From NCBI GenBank assembly GCA_963677925.2, contig CAXXYH010000003.1, forward strand, positions 1,600,001-1,664,000: a stretch of 64,000 nucleotides of DNA, written 5' to 3'. The DNA is from Spirochaetia bacterium (GTDB taxonomy: Bacteria > Spirochaetota > Spirochaetia > UBA9216). This document shows, in pieces, positions 20,477-48,441 of the stretch (position 1 is its first letter; every line of letters begins with the position of its first letter). Made by a program: the position numbers and the translations under genes. Below the pieces are notes generated by a model, which searched no databases, was not told the origin of the DNA, and worked only from the letters and a program-made list of their open reading frames with translations.

Positions 20477-21702
20477 ACAATAATTTTTTCCTTTCCCAGA
20501 GACTTCAGCTGCTCTTCGGCACTTTTCTCGGCTGCTCTGCACTTTGCAAAAGCATCTTCCATATTTGTTCCGCAGACTGCCATGCCATGATTCTCCATAA
20601 CGCAGGCTCTGTTTTCCCTGATGGCGGAAACAACATTATCCGACAGTCTTTTCGATGAAGGCAGTCCGTATCCTGCAAGCCTGATTTCTCCGCCCAGCAG
20701 AGTCCTGCTTTCCAGATCAAACGGTATGATTTGTTTATGTGCAGCGGCAAAAACACTGCAGTTTGACGGATGGCTGTGAATGATACAGTTTACATCCGGA
20801 TGTGAAGCAAGAAGGGCTGCATGAAACGACTTTTCACCGGTCGGCTTCACAGCTCCCTCATATTCCAGTGTACTGATATTCACCCTGACAATATCGTATT
20901 CATTGATCGTAGAGTAATCCATTCCAGAAGGTGTACAGAGCATATAGTCCTCATCAAGCCGTACTGAAATATTCCCCCAGGTTCCCTGCACAAGATTACT
21001 TTCCACCAGCCGGTTTCCAAGACTTATGATCTCACCGCGCAGCTTCAGCTCATCCTGTTCAATTTTTCTATCGATATCCGATGCACTCTGATGTTTAACT
21101 GCCGCCGCCTTTTTTGAATAGGCCAGTTTATATGCGATGTGCATCAGCAGTGCTTCAATCAACGGCAGAGGTTTAGCACCCCCAAGCAGTCCGGCCTGAA
21201 CATGTACCTGTGCCGCCTTTTCAATCACAAGTGCTGCAGTGTAGGCTGTGCGCAGATCGGCTCCGACAGCCAGAAGCCCCGGTGCCAGACCCTTTGAAGG
21301 ACCGGTCAGACATGCGCCGTTACCGCCTGTAATTCGATGCAGCCGAAATGTATTAAAAGGAGAACAGTTTTTGACAAAAACCCCTATAATCTGTGCCATA
21401 TCATCAAGAACCGGCGGGATTCTTCCCCCGGCCTCAGCAGCAACCGAACAGAACTTTGACGCGGCTCTGATTACTGCATTAACCTTCCGGCTCCGGCGGA
21501 ATATTCCATAAACAGCAGGATGCCTGCGAAGCAGCTCTACCCTTGTTAAAACCTCAGCATTCTCCCCACCATTTTCAAGAATAAGAAACTGACCGCCGTT
21601 AAATCGTGCTGCAATAACGGAATTATCCAGATCCATTCCGGCGGTCTTAAGTCGTCCGCTGTAATCCAGAAGGCTTTCCGCGGTTTCCTGCTTTTCAGTC
21701 AT
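20473..21702 (-). CDS. Class II aldolase/adducin family, tandem domains
   Basis: C-domain GNISVR, TPSG, PTGEKSFH, IIHSH, NHG; degenerate N-terminal copy. Confidence 0.85.
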   Translation of the reverse strand: MTEKQETAESLLDYSGRLKTAGMDLDNSVIAARFNGGQFLILENGGENAEVLTRVELLRRHPAVYGIFRRSRKVNAVIRAASKFCSVAAEAGGRIPPVLDDMAQIIGVFVKNCSPFNTFRLHRITGGNGACLTGPSKGLAPGLLAVGADLRTAYTAALVIEKAAQVHVQAGLLGGAKPLPLIEALLMHIAYKLAYSKKAAAVKHQSASDIDRKIEQDELKLRGEIISLGNRLVESNLVQGTWGNISVRLDEDYMLCTPSGMDYSTINEYDIVRVNISTLEYEGAVKPTGEKSFHAALLASHPDVNCIIHSHPSNCSVFAAAHKQIIPFDLESRTLLGGEIRLAGYGLPSSKRLSDNVVSAIRENRACVMENHGMAVCGTNMEDAFAKCRAAEKSAEEQLKSLGKEKIIV

Positions 21703-22553
21703 TTACACTCCAGTTCGTTTATTTCCAAAATGGCATCTTTAATTTTCTGCTTCAGGGTTTCGCGCTCACTTTCAATATTCCAGAGGCCCAGCCGTACGAT
21801 CATGAATGGAAGTCTCCAGCATGTAATTTCTTCATCACATATCCCTGAAGCCTTTTTGTACTGCTTCAGATAATTTCTGCAGATGGTTTTTCTGATTCCT
21901 TCAAGGACAGCTGCTGTAATCCTGTTAAAACCGGGAATCATTTCACCTTCGTTAAGGAGAAATAGAGTTGCAGCAACATCGGCAGCGGGTACACCGCGTG
22001 CCGCCGTCATCCAGTCAATTATCGAGGTTGCTTTTGTATCAGACATTATATTATCAGGATGAAAATCAAGATGAAGTATCGAGTTTCCATCAGGAAGGTT
22101 CTGAAGCAGCTCATCAACCATAGCCCTTTCAGTAACCGAAAGAAAATCCAGAGGTTCAGACTTCAGTGCCTCTCTGACCATATCCTTATAGCTTCTAATT
22201 ACTTCAGTTTGAGTTTCATGCATCGCAAGCTGCAGCTGAGCCATAAGCTTAGGGACGTTGAATGCAGTAAGAGGCTTTGCCCCTGCAAGACTTATCAGAG
22301 GCATTCCCGGTATTTTTTCTATTATCAGCCCGGTCTGCGTTCCGACACTTATCTGACCGTAACATTTAACACTTGAGATTCCCCTGGAAAAAGTCTCCTT
22401 CGAGTTTATCTCTTCATTATCTATCAGTTCAGATCCAATTCCTTCATTAAAAAGTTTTATCAGCTGGTTTTCTTTCCACTTATAAATTTTTGAAGACCTG
22501 CTTATAAACAGAGGTTCTCCAAGAACATCCGTACTGCTTAGTTTCTCCTGCAT
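21699..22553 (-). CDS. APH/choline-kinase-like small-molecule phosphotransferase
   Basis: IKLF, HLDFHPDNIM (Brenner motif), IIDW. Confidence 0.8.
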   Translation of the reverse strand: MQEKLSSTDVLGEPLFISRSSKIYKWKENQLIKLFNEGIGSELIDNEEINSKETFSRGISSVKCYGQISVGTQTGLIIEKIPGMPLISLAGAKPLTAFNVPKLMAQLQLAMHETQTEVIRSYKDMVREALKSEPLDFLSVTERAMVDELLQNLPDGNSILHLDFHPDNIMSDTKATSIIDWMTAARGVPAADVAATLFLLNEGEMIPGFNRITAAVLEGIRKTICRNYLKQYKKASGICDEEITCWRLPFMIVRLGLWNIESERETLKQKIKDAILEINELECK

Positions 22554-22611
22554 ACCCTACTCCCGTTATTAATCTTCTCCCTGTTTTGCTGCTACTTAGA
22601 GCTGTACCAAT

Positions 22612-22748
22612 TCACATTTGTGATTCACATATGTTATTTCAATTTTACAAAATAATAAATCAACATCCTGCTCAAGTCAACAAAAACTTTAAGACAGAAA
22701 GACTGAATTTCATCCAAGCTTGACAAGTCACAAATGTGATTATAAGAT
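22612..22748. promoter_or_regulatory. Divergent sigma70 promoters with TCACAWWTGTGA operators
   Basis: Boxes at 22612-22623, 22625-22636 and 22728-22739. Plus strand: TTGACA(22720)-17-TAAGAT. Minus strand: TTGACT(22680)-17-TATTAT. Confidence 0.7.
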
Positions 22749-22782
22749 TTTCAAATCCCGGGTTGCTCAGAGAGGAGTGCTG

Positions 22783-23748
22783 ATGACATTGAATGTTGAT
22801 AAGATGGTGATACTCAGAATTGCAAAGGATTACTATCTTGATCGTCTGAGCCAGCAGGAAATAGCTGATAAAGAGAATATTCACAGATCACAAATTTCAC
22901 GGATACTGAAAATGGCGCGCGAAATGGGCTTTGTCAGCATCAAAATTGCCGCCCCTGAAGATCAGGATCTTGAGACACTGTCGGAACAGCTCTGCTCTTC
23001 ACTGAAACTTGATGATGTGTTTATTGCACCCAGCCTGTCATCGGAAGGAAATCCTGATGAATCACTGTATTTTTTTGCCGCCAGACGACTTGAAGAGGTA
23101 CTGCTTAAAAGCAGGCGGATAGGTATAGGCCTTGGGAAAACCCTGTATCATACCGCCTCACAGCTCACAAAACAGAGCCTTCCTCAGCCTCCGGATTTTT
23201 ACTCTATAGTAGGAACATCCGGAACAGACAACACCTACCTTCAGGCAGGTGTGCTTCTTGACTCTTTTGCAAAGCCGTTCGGAGGAGCATGTCATTACAA
23301 CAATTTTCCAATCTGCATCAACCGTAAACTGATGACAGATCTGGACCTTAACCGTCATAACGAGCTTCTTCAGTCATACAGTCAGCTTGATACAGTGGTG
23401 CTTTCAGTTGGAGGTCCCCTTAATATAGATTATCCATATCTGGAAGAGGTTTCCTTTTTTGGAAAGGAAATAGATACAAGCAAGGCTTTTTCAAGACCGC
23501 ACGGGAATCTGCTTGGTCATGTATTCTACGATGATCACGAAATACTTAAAATGCCTGAAAATTATATGATGACCAGTATGGATCTTCAAACACTGCAGCA
23601 GATTCCGAATGTCATAGCAATCGCAAGCGGTCTGCGCAAAGCTGATGCAATAATAAGCGCCGCCTCTCAGAATTATATCAAATCTCTGATAACCGATGAA
23701 GCAACCGCGCGCGAGATAATCAAAAGAAAGAGTTCAGTCCTGATATAG
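22783..23748 (+). CDS. SorC/DeoR-family sugar-binding transcriptional regulator
   Basis: IAKDYYLDRLSQQEIA..RSQISRILKMAR HTH, IGIGLGKTL, KADAI..LITDE. Start at 22783 after AGGAG. Confidence 0.9.
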   Translation: MTLNVDKMVILRIAKDYYLDRLSQQEIADKENIHRSQISRILKMAREMGFVSIKIAAPEDQDLETLSEQLCSSLKLDDVFIAPSLSSEGNPDESLYFFAARRLEEVLLKSRRIGIGLGKTLYHTASQLTKQSLPQPPDFYSIVGTSGTDNTYLQAGVLLDSFAKPFGGACHYNNFPICINRKLMTDLDLNRHNELLQSYSQLDTVVLSVGGPLNIDYPYLEEVSFFGKEIDTSKAFSRPHGNLLGHVFYDDHEILKMPENYMMTSMDLQTLQQIPNVIAIASGLRKADAIISAASQNYIKSLITDEATAREIIKRKSSVLI

Positions 23749-23770: not shown

Positions 23771-24643
23771 TTATCGGGTTAAACCATGGAGTTCCCTGAA
23801 CTCTGAAGGTGCAAGCCCCTTCACCCTTTTATAGGCACGTGTAAAGTTAAACGGAGAGTCGAACCCCAGTTCAATACTTATCTCTTTAACTGTCTTATCA
23901 CCATGCCTGAGTAAATTCTCTGCTTTCTGAAGACGTGATTCCAGATACAGCCTTGCCGGTGAACTGTTGAGGTACTCACTGCATTTCATTGACAATGCTC
24001 TTTTTGACATTCCCATTTTCTCGGCTATCCCTTCAACTCCCAGCGGCTGGGTCAGTCTCTCTTTGAAAACAGAATACAGTCTGGAAACAAAAAGCTGACG
24101 GTCGGAATAATTCCTGAACACCTCAGACAGGGATGTTTCAGGCAAAATTCTTGCGATATGCCAGAAGAGGGTTTCCAGCAGGGAATCCTGAAGAGCTCCG
24201 GAAAAGCGGTCGGTATTTCCTGAAACAGAGGCTTCCTGCTCCATATCCTTCAGGATACTCGCCGCTCCGTCCAGAATAGAAGCACCAATCTGCCCTGAGG
24301 CTGATACCGATGGTGAGAAAAGCGGTTCATTTAGTGAAAAATGGAGAACAAAGTGAGCCTGACTTTTTTTCAGATAATCCTGATGCAGATCTCCGGGCTT
24401 GATTACAACAAACATATTATCGCTTATTTCAAGTTTCTGATGATTGAGACTGAACAGATAGGGTCCATGTTCAACCCAGATTAGCTCATAATTATCATGC
24501 TGATGTTCAGGATATTTATAATCCCTGCCGACCGTCATCCTGTGAAAATCAAGGAAAGAAGGCTTTATCTCTTTGTACATATCCATTACACCGGCTCTGC
24601 GCACATAGTCTTTTCTGTAATAATTATTTATCTCAGCATCCAT
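23771..24643 (-). CDS. AraC-family regulator (cupin + HTH)
   Basis: HQHDNYEL cupin; LGFDSPFNFTRAYK..G.APSEFR. Confidence 0.9.
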   Translation of the reverse strand: MDAEINNYYRKDYVRRAGVMDMYKEIKPSFLDFHRMTVGRDYKYPEHQHDNYELIWVEHGPYLFSLNHQKLEISDNMFVVIKPGDLHQDYLKKSQAHFVLHFSLNEPLFSPSVSASGQIGASILDGAASILKDMEQEASVSGNTDRFSGALQDSLLETLFWHIARILPETSLSEVFRNYSDRQLFVSRLYSVFKERLTQPLGVEGIAEKMGMSKRALSMKCSEYLNSSPARLYLESRLQKAENLLRHGDKTVKEISIELGFDSPFNFTRAYKRVKGLAPSEFRELHGLTR

Positions 24644-24750
24644 TAGCTTATTATAACCCTATTTGCCCGAATTGATATGTCATTTTCCTGTCTGCACATT
24701 CCCGTTTTGAAGCAGTACGGATAGTATTGAGAGTATACCGGAGGATATAG

Positions 24751-25503
24751 ATGATAAGTGTAAAAGATCTGGCAAAAATGATAGACCACTCGCTGCTTCA
24801 CCCGACAATGACTGATGAAATACTGAGAAAGGAATGCGAAACTGCAGTGCAATACGATACAGCATCGGTATGCATCAAACCGTACGCAGTCTCACTCGCA
24901 GCTGAAATACTTGCAGGCACCGAAGTGGCAGTTGGAACTGTAATCGGCTTTCCCCATGGAAACAGCAGTACGGAAATAAAGGTTGCTGAAACTTCCAGGG
25001 CCTGTGCCGAAGGCGCTGCAGAAATTGACATGGTGATAAATATCGGCAAGGCGCTTGGAAAAGAATGGAACTATGTAAAAGATGAAATTGCTGCCGTTAA
25101 TAAGGCTGCAGCAGGCGGGGGTGCACATTTAAAAGTGATTTTTGAGAACGATTATCTTGATGATGAAACGATAATTCAGCTCTGCCGGATCTGCAGTGAA
25201 GTTAAACCGGCATTTGTAAAAACAAGTACCGGCTACGGATTTGTAAAACAGGACAACGGCTTCTACACCTACAAAGGCGCCACCGAAGCTCATCTGAAAC
25301 TGATGCGGGCAAATACTGACAGCAGCATTCAGATTAAGGCTGCAGGCGGAGTCAGAACCCTGAAAGACCTTCTTTACGTCCGTTCAATCGGCGTAACACG
25401 GGCCGGAGCAACTGCAACCGCCGCCATGCTCACAGAGGCAGCGGAAGCTGTCAGCAGGGGAATAGAGCTTGAATCACTTACCCCGCAGCATATGGGCGGC
25501 TGA
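24751..25503 (+). CDS. deoC: Deoxyribose-phosphate aldolase
   Basis: IDHSLL, VIGFPHG, EIDMV, KVIFE, FVKTSTG (Schiff-base Lys), IKAAGG. Confidence 0.93.
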   Translation: MISVKDLAKMIDHSLLHPTMTDEILRKECETAVQYDTASVCIKPYAVSLAAEILAGTEVAVGTVIGFPHGNSSTEIKVAETSRACAEGAAEIDMVINIGKALGKEWNYVKDEIAAVNKAAAGGGAHLKVIFENDYLDDETIIQLCRICSEVKPAFVKTSTGYGFVKQDNGFYTYKGATEAHLKLMRANTDSSIQIKAAGGVRTLKDLLYVRSIGVTRAGATATAAMLTEAAEAVSRGIELESLTPQHMGG

Positions 25504-25514
25504 AAAACCACGCC

Positions 25515-27905
25515 CTATGCATCACCGTAGCTTGTACGGGCTATTATCTCCTCCTGGAGGTCACCGGCAAGCTCGGTGAAATAGGCTGTATAGCCGGCTA
25601 CGCGGACAGTCATACTCCGGTACTTCTCGGGAGTCTCCCTGGCGGCTATCAGGTCTTCCTTCCGCAGAACGTTAAACTGGATGTGGTTTATATTCAGCCG
25701 GACGAAGGTTCTCAGAAAGCCGTTGAACTTTCTGATGCCGTCCTCAGTATAAAAAAACTCAGGAAGAAATTTCATATTAAGCAGGGTTCCGTTGCTTCCG
25801 CAGGCTGCGGGTATTCTTGATACTGATTTCAGCAGGGCTGTAGGACCTTCGATGTCGCGGCCGTACATTGCAGACATACCGCCGTCTGCAAGAGGATCCT
25901 TCGCAAGGCGCCCATCCGGTGATGCGCCTACATTCTGCCCCATCGGGACATGGGCCGAAACTGTATACAGGCCGGTGTGATACCGGCCGCCGCGGGCATT
26001 GGTAAACTCGCCCATGCGTCCTGCAAAGTAATTGACCCATTTTGCGCCTATTGCATCAACCCATTCTTCATCGTTTCCGTATTTCGGCACCCTGTTGAGC
26101 ACCCTCTGCCTGAGAACCTCGTCGGATTCCCAGTTGGTCTGAAGTGCTTTCAGCAGCCGCTCGCCGCTTACGCTTTTTTCATCATAAATAAGCTTCTTGA
26201 TTACTGCAAAGCTGTCGGCAAGATTTGCTACCTGGATGGCCTGAATACCTGACAGGTTGTACCGGGCTCCTCCCGCTGTAACGTCAACACCCTTTTCCAG
26301 ACAGTTATCGATCACCGAGGACAAAAACGCCGAGGGGACAACCTCTGCATGAAAACGGTCAACCCGATCGCACATAAGCATCATCCGGTCGATAAAATGA
26401 TCAAGCTGCTTTGTATACGCGGATTCCAGTTCTTCATAGGTTTTATAATCAGCAAGTGAACCGAGGTCCAGACCGATTTTATCTCCGGTTAAAAGACAGA
26501 TGCCGTTGTTGAGCGTAAGTTCCAGAGCCTTGTTCAGATTAAACATCGCGGCATCACTCCAGCCGAGATTATTGCCGTGGGTTGTGAGTTCGACGCAGCC
26601 TACGATAGCGTAATTTCTGGCATCATCCGGTTCTATTCCCTGGTTCATCAGTGCCGGAACAATACTCTCGTCATTAAAAATCTGGGGCATTCCGCTGCCC
26701 TTACCTATTACCCTGGCGCACTCATCAACCAGATCATCCGGACTGCCCTTGAACAGCCTGGCAGAGAGGTTCGGCTGGGGAAGGCCGATATGTTCCTGCG
26801 CCTTCAGAAACAGGAACGAAAGCTCATTGGATGAGTCCTCACCGGCAGAGGTCTGTCCGCCCAGAGCTACATTGAAACCGATTGGAAAACCGGCGAAGTA
26901 ACGGGCACTCCCTGAATTACGCAGGTATACAATCTGATTAAACTTCAGCCACAGGGCCTCAACCAGTTCAAGTGCTCTATTATAATCTATGAGTCCCTTA
27001 TCCATATCCTTCTTCCAGTAGGGATACAGATACTGATCGGCCCTGCCGGGTGAGAAGGATGAAGCGTTTGATTCCATCTGAAGAATGACGTAGAGGAACC
27101 AGAAAGACTGAAGTGCTTCATGAAAACTTTCCGCCGGTTCAGAAGCAAGCTTGCGGCAAATCCGGGCTACTTCTGAAAAATCAGCTTTAACCTTTTCATC
27201 TGCGGCTTCAGCTGCCAATCTTTCAGCCTCAGCAGCATAACGGAGAATAAACTTAAGAGTGCCTTCAAGAACGGTTTGAACTGCAGTATAGAAATTCAGG
27301 TGATCGTCCGCTGCCTTCAGGGCATTCCGTTTTGCCTCTTCAAGCAGTCCGGCAGGTCCCATGGCAAGCCAGTTTTCAGTATCAGGGCATATATGTCCCT
27401 GCGGATGATCCTTCTGGTTTATCTTTGCAACCTTGCCTATAGCCGAAACCTCATCACCTATACTGCTGTATATTCGATCCTCAAGACTCTTTCCCTTCCA
27501 GTATGGAAGAATCTCTTTTCTGAAAAGTTCAATATCTTCCGGGTGAACATTGAAACGATCCTGGGGCCTGTCGTGCAGATGCTCTATTTCACGGTCTATC
27601 CAGGAAATCCCTGCATCCGGTGAAACAACTCCCGCTCTTACACCTGCAGTACGGTTTCCAACTATCAGCTCTCCTTCATCAATTCTGATTTCAATTCTCT
27701 CCAGGGCCGCAGCAAGAGCCATTGCCCGTTTAAGCTCAATCGGCTTATCCTCATTCTGCTTATAAACAGAAGTAACTATCCGGGCCTGTTCTATGGAAAG
27801 ATAGCGCGGTTCATCAAGCATCGCGTCCTTTAATCTTCCTATCCTTTCTGATAGTTCAAGATTTTTAATTTCTTTTACATATCTGCTTCTGTCGTTATTG
27901 TTCAT
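25515..27905 (-). CDS. Glycyl radical enzyme, PflD-like (PFL2 clade)
   Basis: GCVE thiyl loop (single Cys) and RVAGY glycyl loop. ESNASS, SARYFAGFP and YTVSAHVP segments match my recollection of E. coli PflD. Confidence 0.9.
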   Translation of the reverse strand: MNNNDRSRYVKEIKNLELSERIGRLKDAMLDEPRYLSIEQARIVTSVYKQNEDKPIELKRAMALAAALERIEIRIDEGELIVGNRTAGVRAGVVSPDAGISWIDREIEHLHDRPQDRFNVHPEDIELFRKEILPYWKGKSLEDRIYSSIGDEVSAIGKVAKINQKDHPQGHICPDTENWLAMGPAGLLEEAKRNALKAADDHLNFYTAVQTVLEGTLKFILRYAAEAERLAAEAADEKVKADFSEVARICRKLASEPAESFHEALQSFWFLYVILQMESNASSFSPGRADQYLYPYWKKDMDKGLIDYNRALELVEALWLKFNQIVYLRNSGSARYFAGFPIGFNVALGGQTSAGEDSSNELSFLFLKAQEHIGLPQPNLSARLFKGSPDDLVDECARVIGKGSGMPQIFNDESIVPALMNQGIEPDDARNYAIVGCVELTTHGNNLGWSDAAMFNLNKALELTLNNGICLLTGDKIGLDLGSLADYKTYEELESAYTKQLDHFIDRMMLMCDRVDRFHAEVVPSAFLSSVIDNCLEKGVDVTAGGARYNLSGIQAIQVANLADSFAVIKKLIYDEKSVSGERLLKALQTNWESDEVLRQRVLNRVPKYGNDEEWVDAIGAKWVNYFAGRMGEFTNARGGRYHTGLYTVSAHVPMGQNVGASPDGRLAKDPLADGGMSAMYGRDIEGPTALLKSVSRIPAACGSNGTLLNMKFLPEFFYTEDGIRKFNGFLRTFVRLNINHIQFNVLRKEDLIAARETPEKYRSMTVRVAGYTAYFTELAGDLQEEIIARTSYGDA

Positions 27906-27918
27906 TTCTCATTCCCCC

Positions 27919-29781
27919 TTATGCCAGGCCCTTTCTGATCAGGCATTCATTGGCATAGTAAATTGCTCCAACAGCCTGTGCAAACTGGGCAACCGTATAG
28001 TCCCGGTCCTCCTCAAGCTGTTTCATCAGACTTGTATTTGCCAGAGTTGAGTCTGCTATTTCAAACTCTATTTCAGGAACTACCGTTTTTGCACCCTCCA
28101 GAAGAAGGTCGTAACAGATTTTACGCTTAACAAGACGTCCGAACTGAAATCTTGTTTTTGCGGCCGGGTGCAGAATCCGCTCTGTCTCAAGCCAGGTGAC
28201 TCCAAGCGCAGCACCGATTTCAAGCCATATTTTGCGGTTGGTTTCATCGTTTTCCCTTTCTGCAAGCATCATCATATGCTCAAGAAAGGCTTTTCTCATA
28301 TCTTCAGGCTCGGTGGGAACAATCAGCCGGCTTTCCCCGTTAATCTGAACCTCCTGCACAAAGCCCTTTTCTTCAAGCTCCCTGTAAAGGTCAGGACGTT
28401 CTGCCGGAAAGTATTTTACAGCCAGCCTGAAAACACCGCTCTGACTGGTATATTTCTGAAGCGTCCCTGAAAGCCCTGTGTTGAAATTATTTACACTTCG
28501 CAGATCATCAGGATGATACTGCTGTTCCGGTACACAGCCAAGATCTATTATAAAGTTGTACACCTCAAGCGGTATATCAGGTATTGTACCATCCTCACGG
28601 ACCCAGCCTGTACCAAGCTCTGTCCCAAGAGTATGGGCAAATACCCCCTTTTCAACCATCGGAGCCTTTTCCGAAGCAGCCATTTCAACCGCCGCAGTGA
28701 AGGCCGCCATCGGTCCGTCATTTATCATGCTGACAGCCCCTGGCTTTGAACAGTACTGCTCAAGCCGTACATTAAGATCCGTAAGGCTGGTAAAATCATC
28801 CTCATAATCAATCTCGGGATTATTCCTTATGCCTCTGGTCTTGTAGACCTCCCCGCCTACAACCTTGTCCCTGATTACTACATCAGGAAAGCAGAGTCCT
28901 ATTCCGTCAAAGTTAATAATGTGATCCTTAAGAAAGGCTTCGGCATCATCACAGAAGGCAGCCATTTCAGATTCAGTCGCCTCACGCCTGAGAACTTCGG
29001 AAATTCGAACCTTGAGCTCGACCGGGACTTTATCATGAACATGAGTAAGTATGAAAATATTACGGAGCATTCTTGTAAGCAGGACTACAGGTTCAACAAG
29101 CTGCTTCGACTGTTTAAAAACAGCCGGAAACCAGTCGTATTCCTTGAAAGCAATTACCCGGCCGTCATAGACAACGGCCAGCTTGATATCAGTCCCGCCT
29201 ACATCAATTCCGCAGAGTAGCTTTCCCTCAAGGCCCTCGGCAGCTCGTCTGAATATGACAAGCCCTGATTCTCTGCCGGATTCAGAAGATACAGGTAATG
29301 GATTACCGAGAGCGCTGATATCCGAATAAACAAAACTGAAACGCTCATTATCTGAAGAAAGGGCGGCAAGCATGCGGTCAATTACATTTACGCATCTGCC
29401 GTAACCGGGCCTGTCTTTCCGGCTTAGACTGATACCGAAGGCCTCATCAAGTGAGGAGCACAGAGCGTCAAGGCTGCGGTTTGCCTTGTCATAGAAGATC
29501 TCAAGCATTCTGCCGCCAAGAGACGAAAGGATATTATAGACTTCAGCGTACAGATAACGCCTGCAAAGCTCAAATAGTATCGGCTCTGCACCTTTCGGAT
29601 CGGGGATAACTAAATCAAAGCGTGAGCGGTTTTCACCTTCAAGCGCAGTTAAAAGCATGCTTATATTCACAGTCTGCTTATTGTCCATACCAGTGAAGCA
29701 TTTTCTTACCCTGTTTATATAAACAGAATTACCTGAATCGGCATCCTTTATAAGATCCTTCCAACCCTCTGTTCCGCTCAT
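27919..29781 (-). CDS. Atypical ROK/ASKHA sugar-kinase-like protein with N-terminal extra domain
   Basis: GIDVGGTDIK, GIGLCFP, INDGPMAA, TLGTELGTG, AQAVGA. Confidence 0.65.
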   Translation of the reverse strand: MSGTEGWKDLIKDADSGNSVYINRVRKCFTGMDNKQTVNISMLLTALEGENRSRFDLVIPDPKGAEPILFELCRRYLYAEVYNILSSLGGRMLEIFYDKANRSLDALCSSLDEAFGISLSRKDRPGYGRCVNVIDRMLAALSSDNERFSFVYSDISALGNPLPVSSESGRESGLVIFRRAAEGLEGKLLCGIDVGGTDIKLAVVYDGRVIAFKEYDWFPAVFKQSKQLVEPVVLLTRMLRNIFILTHVHDKVPVELKVRISEVLRREATESEMAAFCDDAEAFLKDHIINFDGIGLCFPDVVIRDKVVGGEVYKTRGIRNNPEIDYEDDFTSLTDLNVRLEQYCSKPGAVSMINDGPMAAFTAAVEMAASEKAPMVEKGVFAHTLGTELGTGWVREDGTIPDIPLEVYNFIIDLGCVPEQQYHPDDLRSVNNFNTGLSGTLQKYTSQSGVFRLAVKYFPAERPDLYRELEEKGFVQEVQINGESRLIVPTEPEDMRKAFLEHMMMLAERENDETNRKIWLEIGAALGVTWLETERILHPAAKTRFQFGRLVKRKICYDLLLEGAKTVVPEIEFEIADSTLANTSLMKQLEEDRDYTVAQFAQAVGAIYYANECLIRKGLA

Positions 29782-29871
29782 ACCTCGCCTCCGGACTGCA
29801 TTTACAACAATTATTTCATTATTTAAACTAATTATCGTTCAGGAAATGCGGGTTGTCGTTAGACGGTTTTG

Positions 29872-30729
29872 TCAGATTTCTTGGATTATTTTGCGGTCGG
29901 CTGTAGGTGAAAGTCCGGTAATCTGCTTGTACAGTCTTGAAAAGTAGTGGTAGTCGTCAATTCCAACACGTTCTGAAGCCTCAAGCAGCGTCATGTCCGG
30001 ATTATTTTTCAACAGGTACCTTGCTCTCAGGATCTTAGCCCTGTTCCAGTAACCCGAAAGAGGCATATCCATCTGCTCTTTAAAAACACGGCTGATATAG
30101 TATGAGGAGTAACCCAGTTCATTTGCTATATCATCGAGGTAAAATTTCTGGTGTATGTTTGAATCGATGTAGGTGGTAATCTTCTGGATAAGAAGCTGCT
30201 TACTGCTGTATTCCCGGGCTATTCCTGCCTTGTCAACCAGACAGTTTCTGTGCAGAAAGATCACAATTGAATGAAACAGACTTTCAATAGCCTTGTTTCT
30301 TGCAGTAAAATTATTCAGAACTTCCTCAATGAGTGCACTGAAGTACTGAGGCAGGTTGAACTGGTCGGTAAAAACGTGCTGAGTAACATGGGACATCTCA
30401 TCATACAGCTTTTTATAAACAGGATCATCAAAGAGACGAAATGCAAGATAATACATCCGGTACGGATCATGGGGATCAGCAACCGAGTGATGAACCTGAT
30501 ACGGCATGGCAAAAAACAAGTCTCCCTGTTTCACTTTATACTCGGTGTCTTCTATGATAAAGCTTCCCTTTCCGGCAGTTATCAGACATATCTCAATATC
30601 CGCACTGTGATGATGAGGCTCCCGATAGTAGTCGGGAGTACAGACCAGATCACCAAGCAGGGTAATTGATGAGATATCATCCTTATAGAGATTCTCTCTG
30701 TGAAATAGATAGTAATGCTGTAGCTTCAT
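29872..30729 (-). CDS. AraC-family regulator
   Basis: HHHSADIEI cupin; YISRVFK, YFSRLYKQITGLSP. Confidence 0.9.
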   Translation of the reverse strand: MKLQHYYLFHRENLYKDDISSITLLGDLVCTPDYYREPHHHSADIEICLITAGKGSFIIEDTEYKVKQGDLFFAMPYQVHHSVADPHDPYRMYYLAFRLFDDPVYKKLYDEMSHVTQHVFTDQFNLPQYFSALIEEVLNNFTARNKAIESLFHSIVIFLHRNCLVDKAGIAREYSSKQLLIQKITTYIDSNIHQKFYLDDIANELGYSSYYISRVFKEQMDMPLSGYWNRAKILRARYLLKNNPDMTLLEASERVGIDDYHYFSRLYKQITGLSPTADRKIIQEI

Positions 30730-30739
30730 ACCTCCTACA

Positions 30740-32011
30740 TCATACCATGTCTACAAAAACAAGAAGTCCTTTTTTCCTGAAATATATCAAAAGTATAAAC
30801 TGGGCAATTAGCAAGGCAGTGCAGACCATAAGAAAAGAAAAAAGCGTCACAGACATGCCCTTCCCATCACTGATTATTCCGCCGAAGAAAGTTCCTACAA
30901 TTATTCCCAGGTTAATCACTCCCTCATGAATAGCCATACTCCTCTCACGGTTGGTGCTTCCAGTTGCTCCGTAAAACTGTCCCAGAGTATAGGAAAAGCT
31001 GAGATTAAATCCCATCATACCGAAGAAAACAAGCAGGGCTGCAGGAGTCCTGGAGACCAGAAGCAGGGCAAGTGTCAGTACAGTGAGTATCTGATTAAAA
31101 AGAATCAGCCGCGGCTTAAAATGCCAGCCCTTCCATTTCCCCCAGAGAATAAAGCCCGCAGTTGAAAAGATCTGTCTGAAAAGCAGAAAAAAACCTATTA
31201 TCCCTTCCCGGTAGCCAAGACTTTCCCTCATATATGCCGGAAAAATAAAAACTATCATACCGGAAATTACATAGGTTGAGAGCACACCAAGCCTGGCAGG
31301 AAACCTGAGCGGAGTCATCTGAGTGGTTCCGATTTCTGGATCTGTATCGGCGGGTTCTTCACCCTCCTCCAGAGCCTTTACTCTTGCTTTTCTGATTTCC
31401 GCCTGCCCCTTTCTCATTTCCGGATAGATACGTGAAAATATAAAAAGAAGCAGTCCTATAAACAGCAGCATAAATATAGTTGAAATAAATGGTAGAACAA
31501 TATTTCGCTCGGTAAGAAACCCGCTTACTGCCGGGGCAATAATTCCCCCAGTAGACCACGAAAAATTATACTGGGACATGGTTTTACTCAGGTTATTACC
31601 CTCAAGACCCCATGAGACCCAGCCTGAAATTCGCGGCCAGAAAAGAGCCATGAAGAGTCCGTACAGACATCCGCAGATAAGGGTGAGACGCCAGTATGGA
31701 AAAATCTGGTAGACAGTTAACAATACAGCCATACCAAGGGCGGAAAAACCGAGAAAATACCTTGGATGCGTATTTTTATTAAGGGAAAAAGCAAGAACTC
31801 CTATTATATAGAAAAGAGTTTGTCCTGAAGTAATCATACCTATCATAGTATGATCAGCATCAAAACGCTGCTTTACGTAAAAAACAATTGCAAAACTAAC
31901 CATTCCGGTTGCCAGGCTGAATAGAAATGTAGCAGCCATTAGTATATTTAAATATGTAGGTCTGTTCATAATATATAATTTGAATCTATATTCAGGAGTA
32001 TTAATAAACAA
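30740..32011 (-). CDS. MFS transporter (start may be ATG 31969)
   Basis: 12 hydrophobic segments in a 6+6 arrangement with a central loop. Confidence 0.82.
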   Translation of the reverse strand: MFINTPEYRFKLYIMNRPTYLNILMAATFLFSLATGMVSFAIVFYVKQRFDADHTMIGMITSGQTLFYIIGVLAFSLNKNTHPRYFLGFSALGMAVLLTVYQIFPYWRLTLICGCLYGLFMALFWPRISGWVSWGLEGNNLSKTMSQYNFSWSTGGIIAPAVSGFLTERNIVLPFISTIFMLLFIGLLLFIFSRIYPEMRKGQAEIRKARVKALEEGEEPADTDPEIGTTQMTPLRFPARLGVLSTYVISGMIVFIFPAYMRESLGYREGIIGFFLLFRQIFSTAGFILWGKWKGWHFKPRLILFNQILTVLTLALLLVSRTPAALLVFFGMMGFNLSFSYTLGQFYGATGSTNRERSMAIHEGVINLGIIVGTFFGGIISDGKGMSVTLFSFLMVCTALLIAQFILLIYFRKKGLLVFVDMV

Positions 32012-32070
32012 TAGCTAATGATGAAAAATTTAATAAAGTTTGATATGATAACTTACCGGAGATATCAGAA

Positions 32071-32373
32071 ATGCCTAAAGCCGAAGTTCAGATTTATCCG
32101 CCTCTTTCCTATCACTTTCAGACAGGAAAACCCGGCCCCTATACTGTAAAAACCAAGTTTAATTCAGGAGACTCAATAGCTGATATTATTACAAGTCTTT
32201 ATAAAGAGACTCCGGAACTTTGGGATAAAATATTCGATCATAACAGGAAAATGATGCGGCATCCGATTAAAACCGAGTATATGGGTGAGGTGATCGGCCC
32301 CTATGCACTGGACAGGACTGAGGTTTCAGATGGTGAGAAGATAATTTTCAAGGTTCTGCTCGGCGGAGGCTGA
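32071..32373 (+). CDS. MoaD/ThiS-like ubiquitin-fold protein
   Basis: 100 aa, beta-grasp-like pattern, DGEKI..LLGGG C-terminus. Confidence 0.7.
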   Translation: MPKAEVQIYPPLSYHFQTGKPGPYTVKTKFNSGDSIADIITSLYKETPELWDKIFDHNRKMMRHPIKTEYMGEVIGPYALDRTEVSDGEKIIFKVLLGGG

Positions 32374-32375
32374 GT

Positions 32376-33098
32376 TCAGATTATCAAGGCATTCAGTGCC
32401 GCAAGGATTTCCTTCTTTTCTCCGCCGGCGGCTGCTGCAGCTTCATCAACGTAGTCACCGACTCCTTCCTTCACATCGCCCTCATACAATACAACATTAT
32501 TAAGGATTGATGCCGCCCGAACCCGGCGGATTGATGCAAGCGTAAAGAGTGCAGAGGTTTCCATGTCCGAGGCCATAACTCCCAGACTGTTCCACCTGCG
32601 CATCAGCTCAGCCTCATGATCTATATAGAAGGAATCATGGCTGCGTGTAATCCCGGTATGATAAGTATAACCGGCATCGGAACAGGCTTTAACAAGAGCC
32701 GATAAAAGTGAGAAGTCAGGAACAGCCGGAAACTCTTTCGGGGCGTACATCACGGAAGCCCCGTCCTCACGTACGGAACCGGTTGAAATAACAAGATCAC
32801 CAAGGGCAATCCCCGGCTGACAGGCTCCGCAGCTGCCTATTCTGATGAAGGACTTTGCCCCGCAGGCTGCAAGCTCTTCAACTGCAATAACTGCCGATGC
32901 CCCGCCTATACCAGTTGAAGTAACTGTCACAGGCGTCCCCCTGTAGCTTCCGGTTACAGTCCTGAACTCCCTGTTGAATGCAATCTCACGGACATTATCA
33001 AGGAACTCTGCTACCCTGAGCACACGGGCAGGATCTCCGGGCAGAAGAACTCTTTCTGCTACATCTTCTGAATTACATAGTATATGCGGCTGTTTCAT
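32376..33098 (-). CDS. udp: Nucleoside (uridine-type) phosphorylase
   Basis: LLPGDPAR, NREF, STGIGG, IRIGSCG, HDSFY, SDMET. Confidence 0.85.
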   Translation of the reverse strand: MKQPHILCNSEDVAERVLLPGDPARVLRVAEFLDNVREIAFNREFRTVTGSYRGTPVTVTSTGIGGASAVIAVEELAACGAKSFIRIGSCGACQPGIALGDLVISTGSVREDGASVMYAPKEFPAVPDFSLLSALVKACSDAGYTYHTGITRSHDSFYIDHEAELMRRWNSLGVMASDMETSALFTLASIRRVRAASILNNVVLYEGDVKEGVGDYVDEAAAAAGGEKKEILAALNALII

Positions 33099-33160: not shown

Positions 33161-35830
33161 TTATTTTTCACTGCCGGGGTTAAATCGAGCGGTAAAGCTG
33201 TATTCGCCGCTGCCCGTTTCATGGCTGGAACCATCGGGGAGGATTACTGTTGCAGTTGTATTGCAGGGAATCTGGATCGACAACCTGAATTCATTACTCT
33301 CCAGTTCCCAGTCTGAACTTACTCTTCCATATTCAGTCATATAGCTTCTTTTCGCCCATGATAACGGGGAGTACTCAGGATGAGGCTGTATGATTATATG
33401 CCTGAACCCAGGTTCGCTGAAATCAATTCCGTTTATGTTTCGAAAGATCCAGTCGACGACAGAGCCGAATGCATAATGGTTGAAACTTATATTCAGAGGT
33501 TCACCGTCACTATTGAAAGCTTCCCAGCTTTCCCACATCGTTGTTGCCCCATTTTCCACAGCATATAACCATGAAGGCTTTTCGGTCTGGAAGAGCAACT
33601 GATATGCACAGTCATATTTTCCGTTTTTTGATAAGGAGTCAAGAATATACGGGGTACCGAGAAACCCCGTATCCAGACAGTTCCCGTTTTCTTCGATTAA
33701 TGCCAGAAGTCTGTCGACAAACCCGGGCTTAAGATTATCAGCAACGAGATCGAAGTAGAGAGGCAGTACATATGCACCCTGCAGAGCCCGGGCTTTCTCA
33801 GAATATCTTGAAATTACTTCGGACTCTATCGCCCCCCTCATATTTTCCTCAATTGTGCAATAATATCCGTAATCTTCTTCATTTTTTAGAATACGACAGA
33901 TTTCCTTCATCAGGGATATTGAGTACCATCCCATAACCGGTGTTGTATATTCAGCCGAGTCCCTGATCTTTTTAAAGGCATGCAAACCTGCTCCTTCTCT
34001 CGACTGGCTTGGGATGAGCCACTCCCCGTAATGAAACCCGGTATTCCAGAGATACCTGTCCTTTTCCTTATCTATCTCCCGGTTCTTCCCACGTCTTGTT
34101 TCGGCTGTATTGATGACATAATCACACCAGCGCTTCATTGAATCATACTGGCGCCTAAGGATGGGGAGGTTGCCGGTAACCTGATACATAGTCCAGGGTA
34201 CGATAACGGAGGCATCGCCCCACCCCGCAACCCCGACGTCTCCCTTGTTTCCAAACAGCAGGCCCATTACCCTGGTCATCGTCCTAAACATTGATGTAAA
34301 AGGAATAACCATCGGTACAGCCCCGTTTGAATGCTGTTCGCAGGATAGGTTATCAAGCCACCGTGTAAGGAAGGCTGTTACATCTTCATTCAATAAGGCT
34401 GTACGGCAGTAAACTTGGATGTCGCCGGTCCAGCCTGCCTTCTCCCGCTGCGGACAGTCGGTCGGAACAGAAAGCATGTTTGCCGACTGAGACCACCTTG
34501 TGTTCAGGTACAGCCTGTTTAACCGCTCATCCGAGCATGAAAAAGTTCCAAGCTGTTCATTCTCTGAACTCAGGACAACCGCAACAAAATCATCAGGATT
34601 AATCTTTTCAAGACCTGTAACCCTTACATACCTAAAACCGTGGTAAGTAAATAACGGCTCATACTCCGCGGGTTTACCCGCTGAAACAAACTCAACTTTC
34701 TGTGCCACTTTCTTACCAAGATTTGAGTAATAATTGCCCTCTTTATCCGTTATCTCCGAATGTTCAAATGTAACAGTATTCCCCTTAGGAATATCCAGCC
34801 TTACCCTCAGCCTTCCGGCTATATTTTGTCCGAAGTCGATCATCATGTCGCCTTTCGGAGACGTATAAACTGAAACAGGTTTCAGGATTTTTACTGCCTT
34901 TACCGGCCCCCCGATCTGGGCTTTTAGATTACCGAACCCGATGTCAGCCGGCACCGCCGTTTTCCAGCCCGAATCATCAAATCCGGGGGTATCCCAGCAG
35001 CAGGCTTCATAATTGGCATTATACTTTTCACCTGAAAAAAGATCGCTGAACATTACGGGCCCATGCAAGGCTTTTACCCTGCCATCGGAACATATACGGG
35101 CGGTGCTCCCGTCACGATACTCAATTTCAATCTGGAACAAAACAGCATGGGAATTCCTGTATCCCCGGAATTTCGGAGCAACCATCATATTCCCACTATA
35201 CCAGCCGTCGCCGACATGCAAGCCAACAGCATTATCTCCGATCTTTAATAGACCGGTAATATCATAGATCTGATAACACAGATACTTTTCATAGCTGGTA
35301 TGCTCCGGTGCGAATTCTCTACTGTCCGCCCTTCTGCCGTTAACCCTTAACTGATAAATTCCATGGCAGGTTGTATAAATTCTTGCTTCTGAGATCTCCC
35401 GTTCAATCCGGAAGTTTCTGCGGAACAACGTACCGCGCCCCTGCTTTCCAAAACCGAGACTACTTTTCACTTTCCGGAACGGAGATAGAACCCATTCAGC
35501 AGCCCATTCTTTCCTGTTGAGAAAGGCGGTTTCAAACGAAGATGAAGCTACTGCTTCACCTCCGTGATTATCAATGACCGTAACACTCCAGTTGTAGCGG
35601 GTTCGGCTTTTCAATGGCCTGCCCGCATATTCAATGAATGTTGATTCCCGGCTCTCAGTTTTCCCGCTTTCCCAGATAGCCTCACCTTTCGAATCTCTCA
35701 CAACCATTTCCCAGGAGGACTGCATCGTATTTTCAATATCGCTGTTCAGCATCCAGGAAAAAAATGGTTTTTCATCTATTCCAACCGGGGTATCCATATT
35801 CAGAGTTCTTAACCTGTCAAGACTTAACAT
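33161..35830 (-). CDS. Alpha-L-rhamnosidase (GH78)
   Basis: DFGQN, FTYHGFRY, PTDCPQREKAGWTGD, GATTMWESW, SFNHYAFG. Confidence 0.92.
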   Translation of the reverse strand: MLSLDRLRTLNMDTPVGIDEKPFFSWMLNSDIENTMQSSWEMVVRDSKGEAIWESGKTESRESTFIEYAGRPLKSRTRYNWSVTVIDNHGGEAVASSSFETAFLNRKEWAAEWVLSPFRKVKSSLGFGKQGRGTLFRRNFRIEREISEARIYTTCHGIYQLRVNGRRADSREFAPEHTSYEKYLCYQIYDITGLLKIGDNAVGLHVGDGWYSGNMMVAPKFRGYRNSHAVLFQIEIEYRDGSTARICSDGRVKALHGPVMFSDLFSGEKYNANYEACCWDTPGFDDSGWKTAVPADIGFGNLKAQIGGPVKAVKILKPVSVYTSPKGDMMIDFGQNIAGRLRVRLDIPKGNTVTFEHSEITDKEGNYYSNLGKKVAQKVEFVSAGKPAEYEPLFTYHGFRYVRVTGLEKINPDDFVAVVLSSENEQLGTFSCSDERLNRLYLNTRWSQSANMLSVPTDCPQREKAGWTGDIQVYCRTALLNEDVTAFLTRWLDNLSCEQHSNGAVPMVIPFTSMFRTMTRVMGLLFGNKGDVGVAGWGDASVIVPWTMYQVTGNLPILRRQYDSMKRWCDYVINTAETRRGKNREIDKEKDRYLWNTGFHYGEWLIPSQSREGAGLHAFKKIRDSAEYTTPVMGWYSISLMKEICRILKNEEDYGYYCTIEENMRGAIESEVISRYSEKARALQGAYVLPLYFDLVADNLKPGFVDRLLALIEENGNCLDTGFLGTPYILDSLSKNGKYDCAYQLLFQTEKPSWLYAVENGATTMWESWEAFNSDGEPLNISFNHYAFGSVVDWIFRNINGIDFSEPGFRHIIIQPHPEYSPLSWAKRSYMTEYGRVSSDWELESNEFRLSIQIPCNTTATVILPDGSSHETGSGEYSFTARFNPGSEK

Positions 35831-37191: not shown

Positions 37192-37224
37192 AAATACCTC
37201 CATAGTATTAATTGAAATTCTAAT

Positions 37225-39446: not shown

Positions 39447-40193
39447 ATGTCTATTACAAGTAAAGCTAAAGAATACCATGAAAGAATGCTTCCGGGCATT
39501 ACTCCGGATTTAATGAAAACAGATCCGGAGTTTGTTGAACTGTTTAACAATTTTGCATTTGATGAAGTTGTAAACACTGATGATCTTGATGACAAAACCA
39601 GAATGCTTGCTATTCTGGCAACCCTTCTAGGATGCCAGGGAATTGATGAATTTAAGGTAATGCTGCCGGCTGCGCTCAATTTCGGAGTTACTCCGGTGGA
39701 AGTCAAGGAAACAGTATATCAGGCCGCAGCCTACCTCGGCATAGGACGGGTAAAGCCCTTTCTTACAGCAGTCAATGAAATCCTGTCACAGATCGGAATT
39801 GAGCTGCCTCTTCCTTCTCAGGCTACAACCGACTCTGACACAAGACTCCGCGCCGGCAGTCAGGCTCAGGTTGATATCTTCGGTGAACAGATGAAAGATT
39901 TCTGGAAATCCGGCCCTGAAGAAAGCAGACATATAAACCGCTGGCTTGCAGATAACTGTTTCGGTGATTATTACACAAGAACAGGCCTTGATCTTGCGCA
40001 GAGAGAAATGATCACCTTCTGTTTCCTCGCTGCCCAGGGCGGATGTGAACCTCAGCTTATGGGTCATGTTGCCGGCAACCTGAATGTTGGAAACGATAAA
40101 AACTTTTTAATCAAGGTTCTTTCGCAGTGTCTTCCTTTTATCGGATATCCCCGCAGCCTGAACGCTTTACGATGTATCAACGAGGTTAAATAA
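39447..40193 (+). CDS. Carboxymuconolactone decarboxylase/AhpD-family protein (two domains)
   Basis: LDDKTR..LA, FGDYYTRTGL..REMIT, IGYPRSLNA. Confidence 0.88.
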   Translation: MSITSKAKEYHERMLPGITPDLMKTDPEFVELFNNFAFDEVVNTDDLDDKTRMLAILATLLGCQGIDEFKVMLPAALNFGVTPVEVKETVYQAAAYLGIGRVKPFLTAVNEILSQIGIELPLPSQATTDSDTRLRAGSQAQVDIFGEQMKDFWKSGPEESRHINRWLADNCFGDYYTRTGLDLAQREMITFCFLAAQGGCEPQLMGHVAGNLNVGNDKNFLIKVLSQCLPFIGYPRSLNALRCINEVK

Positions 40194-41330: not shown

Positions 41331-41351
41331 CTATACTGGAAAGGAGCTGTT

Positions 41352-43024: not shown

Positions 43025-43076
43025 GCATCATTTAAGATTCATATTTTTATAATAGTTAACTTAAAGGAGATAAAAA

Positions 43077-44126: not shown

Positions 44127-44133
44127 TTATTAA

Positions 44134-48439: not shown

Positions 48440-48441
48440 GT

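Follow-up and report, generated by a model that had tools for sequence, protein, structure and literature searches.

A PflD-like glycyl radical enzyme and its ROK-fold kinase-like partner in a Spirochaetia bacterium: probable displaced piece of a PTS-independent catabolic island

An oxygen-sensitive glycyl radical enzyme (GRE) resembling E. coli PflD lies, in a Spirochaetia bacterium, between the gene for a deoxyribose-phosphate aldolase (deoC) and a gene for a large kinase-like protein, and the question raised by this locus is which of its neighbors are metabolic partners of the enzyme and which are merely nearby. The original prediction made partners of both. All seven genes that it named are found at the following positions of the window, by which we mean the whole 64,000-nucleotide stretch of DNA that was analyzed:

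23771-24643, minus strand: AraC1, an AraC-family regulator, divergent from DeoC
24751-25503, plus strand: DeoC, deoxyribose-phosphate aldolase (TIGR00126 score 200.2, cut-off 117.3)
25515-27905, minus strand: the GRE, 796 aa, with PFL-like and Gly_radical domains
27919-29781, minus strand: P620, a 620-aa ROK-fold ASKHA kinase-like protein, so described from its fold and ATP motifs
29872-30729, minus strand: AraC2, an AraC-family regulator with HTH_AraC, HTH_18 and AraC_binding/cupin domains
30740-32011, minus strand: MFS transporter (MFS_1 domain)
32376-33098, minus strand: PNP_UDP_1 protein (PF01048), labeled only uridine-phosphorylase-like because its TIGR01718 score of 229 is under the cut-off of 280

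The MFS transporter gene heads a same-strand run that continues through AraC2, P620 and the GRE, with AraC2 immediately upstream of P620 and a gap of 13 bp between the P620 stop codon and the GRE start. DeoC converges on the GRE from the other side, and re-measurement of the gap confirms that 11 bp separate the two stop codons. In the gaps between these genes, a scan for promoters and terminators turned up nothing distinctive. No activase adjoins the window GRE, an absence on which the original prediction did not remark.

The GRE scores 684 bits against PF02901 (PFL-like) and 98 bits against PF01228 (Gly_radical), and every motif earlier listed for it is present: QKDHPQGH at 164, PIGFN at 341, GCVE at 436-439, GNNLGWSD at 444, and RVAGY at 768, which supplies the RVxG required of a glycine-radical site. 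The single-Cys CxE loop, as GCVEL, is kept across 49 members of the clade. Identity is 43.5% to E. coli PflD and 34.6% to YbiW. The protein passes TIGR01774 (794.6 vs. a cut-off of 678.2) and fails the equivalog NF007437 (771.8 vs. a cut-off of 1109), which we take to be the model for PflD. Its closest solved relative is PflD (PDB 8yjo, 654 bits), followed by the B12-independent glycerol dehydratase (580 bits). The clade retains the PflD-type motifs ESNASS, AGFP.G, GCVEL and YTVSAH, and its loop changes relative to PflD are DK to DH, PTGYT to PIGFN, IPGR..YGLHD to THGN..LGWSD, and LGQD to YGRD, the first of these falling in the DKGQGH loop. The PflD loops cited in the original comparison (QTDKGQGH, PTGYT and GRTYGLHD) can be read directly in the alignment to 8yjo, and the alignments bear out the claim that the active-site loops of this GRE differ from them. 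These comparisons place the window GRE in a PflD-like clade separate from that of E. coli PflD itself, and its substrate may differ from that of PflD, given the 43.5% identity, the failed equivalog cut-off and the changed loops.

P620 has zero matches among Pfam and NCBIfam models (PF00480, the ROK family, is absent even at E <= 10), and a PDB sequence search with it returned nothing usable. Despite this, the earlier description of the protein as ASKHA/ROK-like is correct at the level of fold. A Foldseek search with its AF2 model (pLDDT 92.5) puts ROK kinases on top (E 1e-11, target TM 0.67-0.74), with nearly all of the best 50 rows being ROK proteins, and hhalign against ROK gives 91.7% (E 8e-7); ESM Atlas offers a mere lead in the same direction (score 0.93, 169 shared features). 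The ROK-fold part covers residues ~185-620 and is preceded by an N-terminal domain (~1-180) with no convincing fold match (best VIA Z 5.5, nothing from Foldseek at E <= 1e-3; weak rows to ASKHA subdomains at Z ~4 are not counted as evidence). The motifs DxGGT, NDG and GTxxGxG are invariant across 90 P620 sequences, the invariant residues including D193, G195, G196, T197, N354, D355, G356, G386, T387, G390 and G392, and the phosphate-1, catalytic-Asp and phosphate-2 motifs of P620 align with those of ROK by hhalign. In the same alignment the ROK ExGH and CxCGxxGC zinc motifs are absent from P620: the GExGH/CxCGNxGC stretch of ROK aligns with PLEVYNFIIDLG and an insert of ~80 residues that has no Cys cluster. 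Because these motifs are missing and PF00480 fails, P620 is no more than a putative kinase, predicted from its fold and its ATP motifs. The family also stands apart from ROK, since phmmer, run against 1.84 billion representatives, recovers no more than 291 relatives at E <= 1e-3 (a separate search gave 1268 matches at E <= 1e-3).

The gene neighborhoods of P620 were compared over 80 loci, each selected by the presence of a P620 relative, in Spirochaetia, Clostridia, Chloroflexi, Planctomycetes, Anaeromyxobacter and Betaproteobacteria. A GRE of the new clade, counted when at least 58% identical to the window GRE and no more than 5 kb from P620, is found in 56 of these loci, and in 40 of the 46 that have at least 3.5 kb of sequence on either side; the order GRE, activase, P620 on one strand recurs in 51. 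The three genes are a conserved cassette, in which P620 partners this GRE clade. Other recurring partners, besides the activase, are a CUT2 ABC importer, an AroE-like dehydrogenase, DeoR, a ROK kinase and a second, YbiW-like GRE, and AraC-type regulators stand beside the GRE/P620 cassette in 19 of the loci. The E. coli scheme has no place for the conserved AroE-like, RmlD-like and HbpS-like genes. Homologs of FrwB, FrwC, FrwD and PtsA are absent from all 80 loci and from the window; Fsa occurs in two of the loci and not in the window. The MFS transporter recurs only in L016, a 94%-identical sister genome, and in the window it occupies the slot held by the CUT2 importer in other genomes. Comparison with L016 gives dN/dS values of 0.072 for the GRE and 0.098 for P620: purifying selection acts on the pair. 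(A phylum-wide sample has P620 in only 2 of 401 genomes, too few for reciprocal co-occurrence.)

Canonical ROK kinases (18 loci) and GREs 48-56% identical to E. coli YbiW (16 within the P620 loci) are counted here in a set biased by having been chosen through P620; within it, a ROK kinase lies no more than 3 kb from 7 of the 16 YbiW-like GREs vs. 3 of 48 new-clade GREs, and P620 is near 44 of those 48, which suggests one kinase per GRE. P620 can also be found with a different GRE. In locus L045 it adjoins a PflD 68% identical to that of E. coli, a true ortholog, and in all five betaproteobacterial P620 genomes the only GRE is 43-44% identical to that of the window, in the PflD-like range, and is not of the new clade. 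Three of five genomes checked have P620 and no new-clade GRE. Such genomes fit a metabolic enzyme better than a GRE accessory.

The remainder of the island to which such a cassette belongs is present in this genome, but at C3:1765501-1780500, ~146 kb from the P620-GRE pair. There the cognate activase, an ABC transporter, a ROK kinase, a YbiW-like GRE (53.8% identical to E. coli YbiW) and AroE-like and RmlD-like genes are found together. The activase (C3:1773646-1774566) scores 322.7 bits against TIGR02494, cut-off 174, and has a median identity of 50% to 31 activases of the cassette, compared to 31% for 6 activases from the YbiW side; by this measure it is the ortholog of the cassette activase and cognate to the window GRE. 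The P620-GRE pair has moved from this ancestral island and is a recent transplant at its present site.

This history bears on the pathway first proposed for the locus. There, a pentitol phosphate or an anhydro-sugar phosphate would be turned by the GRE into a 2-deoxy-aldose phosphate, which DeoC would split into acetaldehyde and glyceraldehyde-3-phosphate. By its TIGR00126 score DeoC is a bona fide DERA, and its stop codon lies close to that of the GRE; a second deoC in the genome (C3:1083221), 39% identical to the window copy, means that the latter could be specialized; tblastn finds no Fsa-type aldolase in this genome; and the arrangement is kept in L016, with a dN/dS of 0.098 for DeoC. Against all this, deoC accompanies a P620 relative in just one of the 80 loci, and that one is L016 itself, which is not independent. 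The original prediction had itself named a deoC not conserved beside orthologs as the observation that would speak against it, and such is the result. DeoC moreover converges on the GRE and has a divergent AraC of its own, the pair came recently from an island free of deoC, and PflD-type chemistry, as reviewed in PMC13450708, yields 1-deoxy-2-ketoses rather than 2-deoxy-aldoses. We consider the DeoC pathway highly improbable, and the 2-deoxy-aldose phosphate deduced by way of DeoC loses its support. The proposed co-occurrence of deoC and the uridine-phosphorylase-like gene with the GRE likewise extends only to L016, and we read the adjacency of both as lineage-specific context, a local coincidence. 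Of the suggestion that a kinase and DeoC replace PTS and Fsa, the first half holds, with kinase-like P620 in place and PTS genes nowhere in the set, and the second half does not.

The P620-GRE pair is instead probably a fragment displaced from a conserved island that serves the anaerobic, PTS-independent catabolism of an anhydro-sugar-type substrate, best read as a kinase-fed, PTS-free variant of the "anhydroglycolysis" of E. coli. A sugar-like compound would be imported, here probably by the MFS transporter and elsewhere, as at the ancestral site in this genome, by the CUT2 ABC transporter. P620, as a divergent ROK-fold kinase, would phosphorylate it with ATP, filling the part played by the Frw PTS for PflD in E. 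coli. The GRE, activated in trans by the radical-SAM activase encoded ~146 kb away, would take a hydrogen next to a hydroxyl and then cleave the neighboring C-O bond by PflD-type ketyl-radical chemistry, to give a 1-deoxy-ketose phosphate that an aldolase encoded elsewhere would split. The substrate may be 1,5-anhydromannitol-like. A radical anhydroglycolysis route with PTS uptake has reportedly been described in E. coli by Ma et al. (JACS, 2024). Our literature search found nothing on the P620 family, on any kinase that partners PflD or YbiW, or on a connection to AroE-like proteins; the text and supplements of Ma et al. may already describe kinase-linked variants.

A bolder form of this proposal is conceivable, if on balance doubtful: P620 and its GRE clade would be a third branch of radical sugar breakdown, with a new kinase family carrying a new N-terminal domain. 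The kinase would act on neither 1,5-anhydromannitol nor 1,5-anhydroglucitol; a different anhydro- or deoxy-sugar is one candidate, and a cyclitol processed by the AroE-like and RmlD-like reductases is another. The GRE, with its loops altered, would then yield a product not made by E. coli, and in this lineage the transplanted pair could have recruited MFS and DeoC as a new front end and back end.

Two other readings keep the cassette together and reassign the work of one member. The new GRE clade might consist of eliminases or dehydratases, their substrate being some other phosphorylated polyol or cyclitol that P620 makes, with the AroE-like and RmlD-like reductases handling ring-ketone intermediates. 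The AroE-like dehydrogenase is indeed present in 27 of the 73 ORF-called loci, mostly directly after P620, among solved structures the glycerol dehydratase is second only to PflD in its match to the GRE, and the loops unlike those of PflD come with conserved His and Arg residues specific to the clade. Such a change of chemistry is nevertheless unlikely when P620 pairs with true PflD in betaproteobacteria, when the cassette shares its loci with YbiW-like GREs and YbiU-like genes (the latter in 5 of the 80 loci), and when the GRE itself retains the four PflD-type motifs. Alternatively it is P620 that could be something other than a substrate kinase: an accessory protein of the GRE system that depends on ATP, or a regulator of it, along the lines of a chaperone, a sensor or Mlc. 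Its conservation is very high (53% mean column identity across phyla), its additional N-terminal domain is conserved and does not clearly match any fold, regulators also belong to the ROK family (Mlc, which is among the Foldseek matches, is one), and a canonical ROK kinase is already available in the 18 loci noted above. Yet neither the catalytic Asp nor either phosphate motif varies, the fold searches of the N-terminal domain gave no DNA-binding fold (nor a convincing match of any kind), P620 is present in genomes that yielded no new-clade GRE, and the ROK kinases adjoin the YbiW-like GRE and not the new-clade one; the accessory role looks improbable. Two further roles for P620 were set aside. 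A phosphate installed by P620 to be the radical leaving group was judged, on reasoning, unnecessary and wasteful, and a reactivase of the kind that serves B12 enzymes was rejected on two grounds: there is no exchangeable cofactor in GREs, and P620 turns up in genomes that yielded no GRE of this kind.

On the favored reading, that of a displaced piece of an anhydro-sugar-type island, a PflD-type enzyme is tied to a sharply delimited kinase-like family that has neither a name nor a Pfam model and is spread over at least six phyla. Naming the P620 family and its substrate would annotate more than 1000 "hypothetical proteins" (the 1268 matches given above) and would show how non-PTS anaerobes feed their glycyl radical enzymes. 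The locus is also a warning: a GRE that has an inviting aldolase next to it and no adjacent activase can be a transplanted fragment, with its real partners 146 kb off.

Among known systems, ROK kinases (PF00480; e.g. glucokinase 2qm1 and N-acetylmannosamine kinase 2yhw/6jda) share the fold of P620 residues ~185-620, and their DxGGT, catalytic Asp and GTxxGxG align with it. P620 differs by an identity of just 11-17%, by lacking ExGH and the zinc CxCGxxGC, where it has the insert of ~80 residues, and by its additional 180-residue N-terminal domain. The B12-independent glycerol dehydratase of C. butyricum (1r8w) has a similar CxE loop and GW.D segment; unlike it, the GRE reads NASS for NGHS and GWSD for GWHD, and its gene context is one of sugar import and a kinase. 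In E. coli, ybiY-ybiW with fsaA, ybiV and ybiU forms the 1,5-anhydroglucitol-6-phosphate branch of anhydroglycolysis, and frwCB-pflD-pflC-frwD with fsaB and gldA the 1,5-anhydromannitol-6-phosphate C-O lyase branch, the latter as described in PMC13450708 and PMC12441222. The YbiW system is matched by the YbiW-like GRE of the ancestral island, by the 16 more in related loci and by the YbiU-like genes of five loci, but its relative lies outside the window, and the window GRE is far from it in identity. From the PflD system the window departs in the 43.5% identity of its GRE, which falls below the NF007437 cut-off, in having a kinase-like protein and an MFS or ABC importer instead of PTS, Fsa and GldA nearby, in an activase that is not adjacent, and in several changed active-site loops. 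It agrees with that system in having PflD (8yjo) as the best solved relative of its GRE, in the shared single-Cys GCVE loop, ESNASS, AGFP.G and YTVSAH, in an adjacent AraC-type regulator (yijO at E. coli pflDC, AraC2 here), and in that relatives of P620 pair with true PflD in betaproteobacteria.

ORF calls and family models recover every gene that the original prediction placed in the stretch 23771-33098 of the window, which reads:

minus strand, AraC1
plus strand, DeoC (TIGR00126 score 200.2 against a cut-off of 117.3)
25515-27905, minus strand, PflD-like glycyl radical enzyme (GRE), 796 aa
27919-29781, minus strand, P620, a ROK-fold kinase-like protein (620-aa ORF) whose stop lies 13 bp ahead of the GRE start
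minus strand, AraC2
minus strand, MFS transporter
minus strand, PNP_UDP_1 phosphorylase (Udp-like; TIGR01718 score 229, under the cut-off of 280)

DeoC and the GRE converge, with 11 bp between their stop codons, and no activase adjoins the window GRE. The Udp-like gene is directly preceded, in the same orientation, by genes for a GH78 alpha-L-rhamnosidase (889 aa) and a GPH-family symporter (33161-37203).

The window GRE carries GCVE at 436, RVAGY at 768 and the loops QKDHPQGH, GNNLGWSD and PIGFN; the PflD loops that the original prediction gave for comparison match PDB 8yjo in the alignment. PflD (8yjo) is the best solved relative at 654 bits, followed by glycerol dehydratase (580) and YbiW (471), and the alignment identities are 43.5% with E. 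coli PflD and 34.6% with YbiW. The protein scores above the cut-off of the PFL2/3 subfamily model and fails the NF007437 equivalog. It belongs to a new clade, defined by at least 58% identity to it, and the 48 GREs found in cassettes (GRE, activase and P620) align to it at 58-70%. The clade keeps ESNASS, AGFP.G, GCVEL and YTVSAH from PflD but conserves DH.QGH where PflD has DKGQGH, PIGFN for PTGYT, tHGN-nLGWSD for IPGR-TYGLHD, and YGRD for LGQD. Further GRE types stand beside the cassette in some loci (L058, L044); one of these, L058_3, shares 45% identity with E. coli PflD and 38% with the window GRE, so islands can hold three distinct GREs.

A genome-collection scan with the P620 family alignment supplied a sample of 80 loci, distributed over Spirochaetia, Clostridia, Chloroflexi, Planctomycetes, Anaeromyxobacter and Betaproteobacteria. 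P620 is accompanied within 5 kb by a GRE of at least 58% identity to the window GRE in 56 of the 80, a share that becomes 40 of 46 among loci whose flanks both extend to 3.5 kb. The order GRE-activase-P620 on one strand occurs in 51 loci and a divergent arrangement in 4, while P620 and GRE without an activase between them are seen in L016 only, the locus of a 94%-identical sister genome. The deoC, MFS and Udp-like genes also recur near P620 only there, which goes against the proposed link between DeoC and the GRE; the co-occurrence of deoC and udp that was to be checked is likewise confined to L016. The suggestion that PTS and Fsa are replaced by a kinase and DeoC survives in its first half (FrwB, FrwC, FrwD and PtsA homologues are found in 0 of 80 loci, and kinase-like P620 is conserved) but not in its DeoC half. 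Fsa is present in 2 of the 80 loci and YbiU-like genes in 5; canonical ROK kinases appear with the other neighbours below.

Neighbours of P620, counted over the 73 loci whose ORF calling recovered P620
CUT2 ABC permeases: 45
ABC ATPase: 38
RhaS/LsrB-like binding protein: 34
DeoR: 29
AroE-family dehydrogenase, mostly right behind P620: 27
AraC: 19
canonical ROK kinase: 18
GMC oxidoreductase: 12

For P620, neither Pfam nor NCBIfam yields a model match, even when hits up to E<=10 are allowed, and the PDB yields none by sequence. Its family is nevertheless well conserved. A word-index search returns 1268 relatives at E<=1e-3, and among the matches listed identity is 51-62% and every protein is named "hypothetical." Exhaustive phmmer over 1.84 billion representatives finds 291 relatives at E<=1e-3, of which 121 reach E<=1e-30, which sets the family sharply apart from ordinary ROK proteins. 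The AlphaFold model (built from 90 sequences; pLDDT 92.5, pTM 0.92) has ROK glucokinases and N-acetylmannosamine kinases as its top Foldseek matches (E 1e-11, target TM up to 0.74, 11-17% identity). Using hhalign, residues 184-573 align with a probability of 91.7% to a set of 16 ROK proteins (15 kinases of related loci, together with the 411-aa ROK protein encoded in the window), pairing GIDVGGTDIK with the DxGGT motif, NDGPMAAF with the catalytic-Asp motif and HTLGTELGTG with phosphate-2; the residues of these motifs are invariant across the 90 sequences. The ROK motif ExGH and the zinc motif CxCGxxGC are absent, replaced by some 80 inserted residues. The first 180 residues make up a domain of their own, modelled with confidence (pLDDT 89.5) and with no convincing structural relative (best VIA Z 5.5; none by Foldseek at E<=1e-3). 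Three of five genomes checked have P620 without a new-clade GRE (as they are MAGs, the GRE may have been missed), which speaks for a metabolic enzyme over a GRE accessory. The 411-aa ROK protein (within 47204-53263) has its ROK domain from residue 84, behind an N-terminal stretch without assignment, and is accompanied by a CUT2 ABC transporter and a URO-D-like protein (416 aa).

The neighbours conserved elsewhere are clustered in the same genome at C3:1765501-1780500 (L100), outside the window, with about 137-146 kb separating them from the genes of the window. In order, this ancestral island holds:

minus strand, LacI
minus strand, DeoR
minus strand, ROK kinase
minus strand, two permeases
minus strand, ATPase
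minus strand, binding protein
minus strand, HbpS-like protein
plus strand, activase
minus strand, YbiW-like GRE (53.8% identical to E. coli YbiW)
plus strand, AroE-like protein
plus strand, RmlD-like protein

Its synteny is that of loci such as L018, L026 and L047, minus the new-clade GRE and P620 that flank the activase there. The island activase has a median identity of 50% (maximum 60%) to 31 cassette activases and of 31% to six activases of the YbiW side; by these identities it is the cognate activase of the window GRE, left behind about 146 kb away by a P620-GRE pair that moved. Purifying selection acts on the displaced pair (dN/dS against L016: P620 0.098, GRE 0.072), so it is not a decaying fragment. 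The AroE-like family representative is barely over the TIGR00507 cut-off (211 against 200). In L101, the genome behind L016, the activase ortholog (1330-2253; 88% DNA identity) shows, against the gene of the window's genome, four 1-bp insertions, three of them extending short homopolymer runs, that cause stops and frame changes; P620 and GRE are intact in that assembly, and the broken gene is either a long-read assembly error or a pseudogene. The window's own genome (contigs C3 and C4) encodes seven PFL-like GREs but only two activases above the TIGR02494 cut-off, neither near the window GRE. In five of the seven GREs the loop is Cys-x-Asp (GCLD, GCMD or GCVD) instead of Cys-x-Glu, and these five share about 31% identity with the window GRE.

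Another run in the window, kept in L016, looks like a kinase-plus-aldolase unit for sugar or deoxy-sugar salvage. It occupies 17403-23748, on one strand except for the divergent regulator:

17403-18698, pyridine-nucleotide-disulfide oxidoreductase
18695-20542, GlpA/glycerol-3-P-oxidase-like flavoprotein with a BFD [2Fe-2S] domain
20473-21702, class II aldolase with an N-terminal extension of about 200 aa lacking a Pfam match
21699-22553, APH-family kinase
22720-23748, plus strand, SorC/DeoR-type regulator

A plus-strand run at 39447-46202 encodes a CMD-family protein, flavodoxin, an MFS transporter, a DUF362 protein, an ArsP-type permease and two fusions of an aldo/keto reductase with 4Fe-4S ferredoxin domains (40194-41330 and 45054-46202). 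Two 260-aa GerE/LuxR-type regulators (8090-8872 and 11534-12316) enclose a GCV_T-like aminomethyltransferase and a 407-aa ORF without a Pfam match.

In published work, YbiW and PflD open 1,5-anhydroglucitol-6-phosphate and 1,5-anhydromannitol-6-phosphate to 1-deoxyfructose-6-phosphate, with uptake by PTS and cleavage of the product by aldolases (PMC13450708, a 2026 review; PMC12441222). The E. coli loci, as inspected, are frwCB-pflDC-frwD with fsaB, gldA and yijO, and ybiY-ybiW with fsaA, ybiV and ybiU. P620 also occurs with true PflD: Propionivibrio locus L045 has, in order, PflD (68% identical to that of E. coli), P620, activase and GMC oxidoreductase, and all five betaproteobacterial P620 genomes have a best-match GRE at 43-44% identity to the window GRE and no new-clade GRE. 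Sixteen GREs in P620 loci are 48-56% identical to E. coli YbiW. Seven of these 16 have a ROK kinase within 3 kb, against only 3 of the 48 new-clade GREs, and P620 is near 44 of the 48; the counts are biased because the loci were selected via P620. The PflD pairing, the YbiW-like GREs and the kinase proximity connect P620 with the known pathway.

The findings are explained most economically by a variant of the E. coli pathway that is kinase-fed and PTS-free. Its substrate would be imported by the MFS transporter in this genome and by the ABC system elsewhere, then phosphorylated by P620; the GRE, activated in trans, would cut a C-O bond by radical chemistry, and an aldolase encoded elsewhere would split the product. 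By tblastn the genome has no match to Fsa, and it has two TAL_FSA-family ORFs (358 and 342 aa). There is a small chance that DeoC was recruited for this step in this lineage, for which the evidence is one non-independent genome pair. For the kinase-fed variant, the window contributes the refuted DeoC link, an island split from its activase by 146 kb, and the pairing of P620 with true PflD in betaproteobacteria; relative to PflD itself, the altered GRE loops suggest that the substrate may differ.
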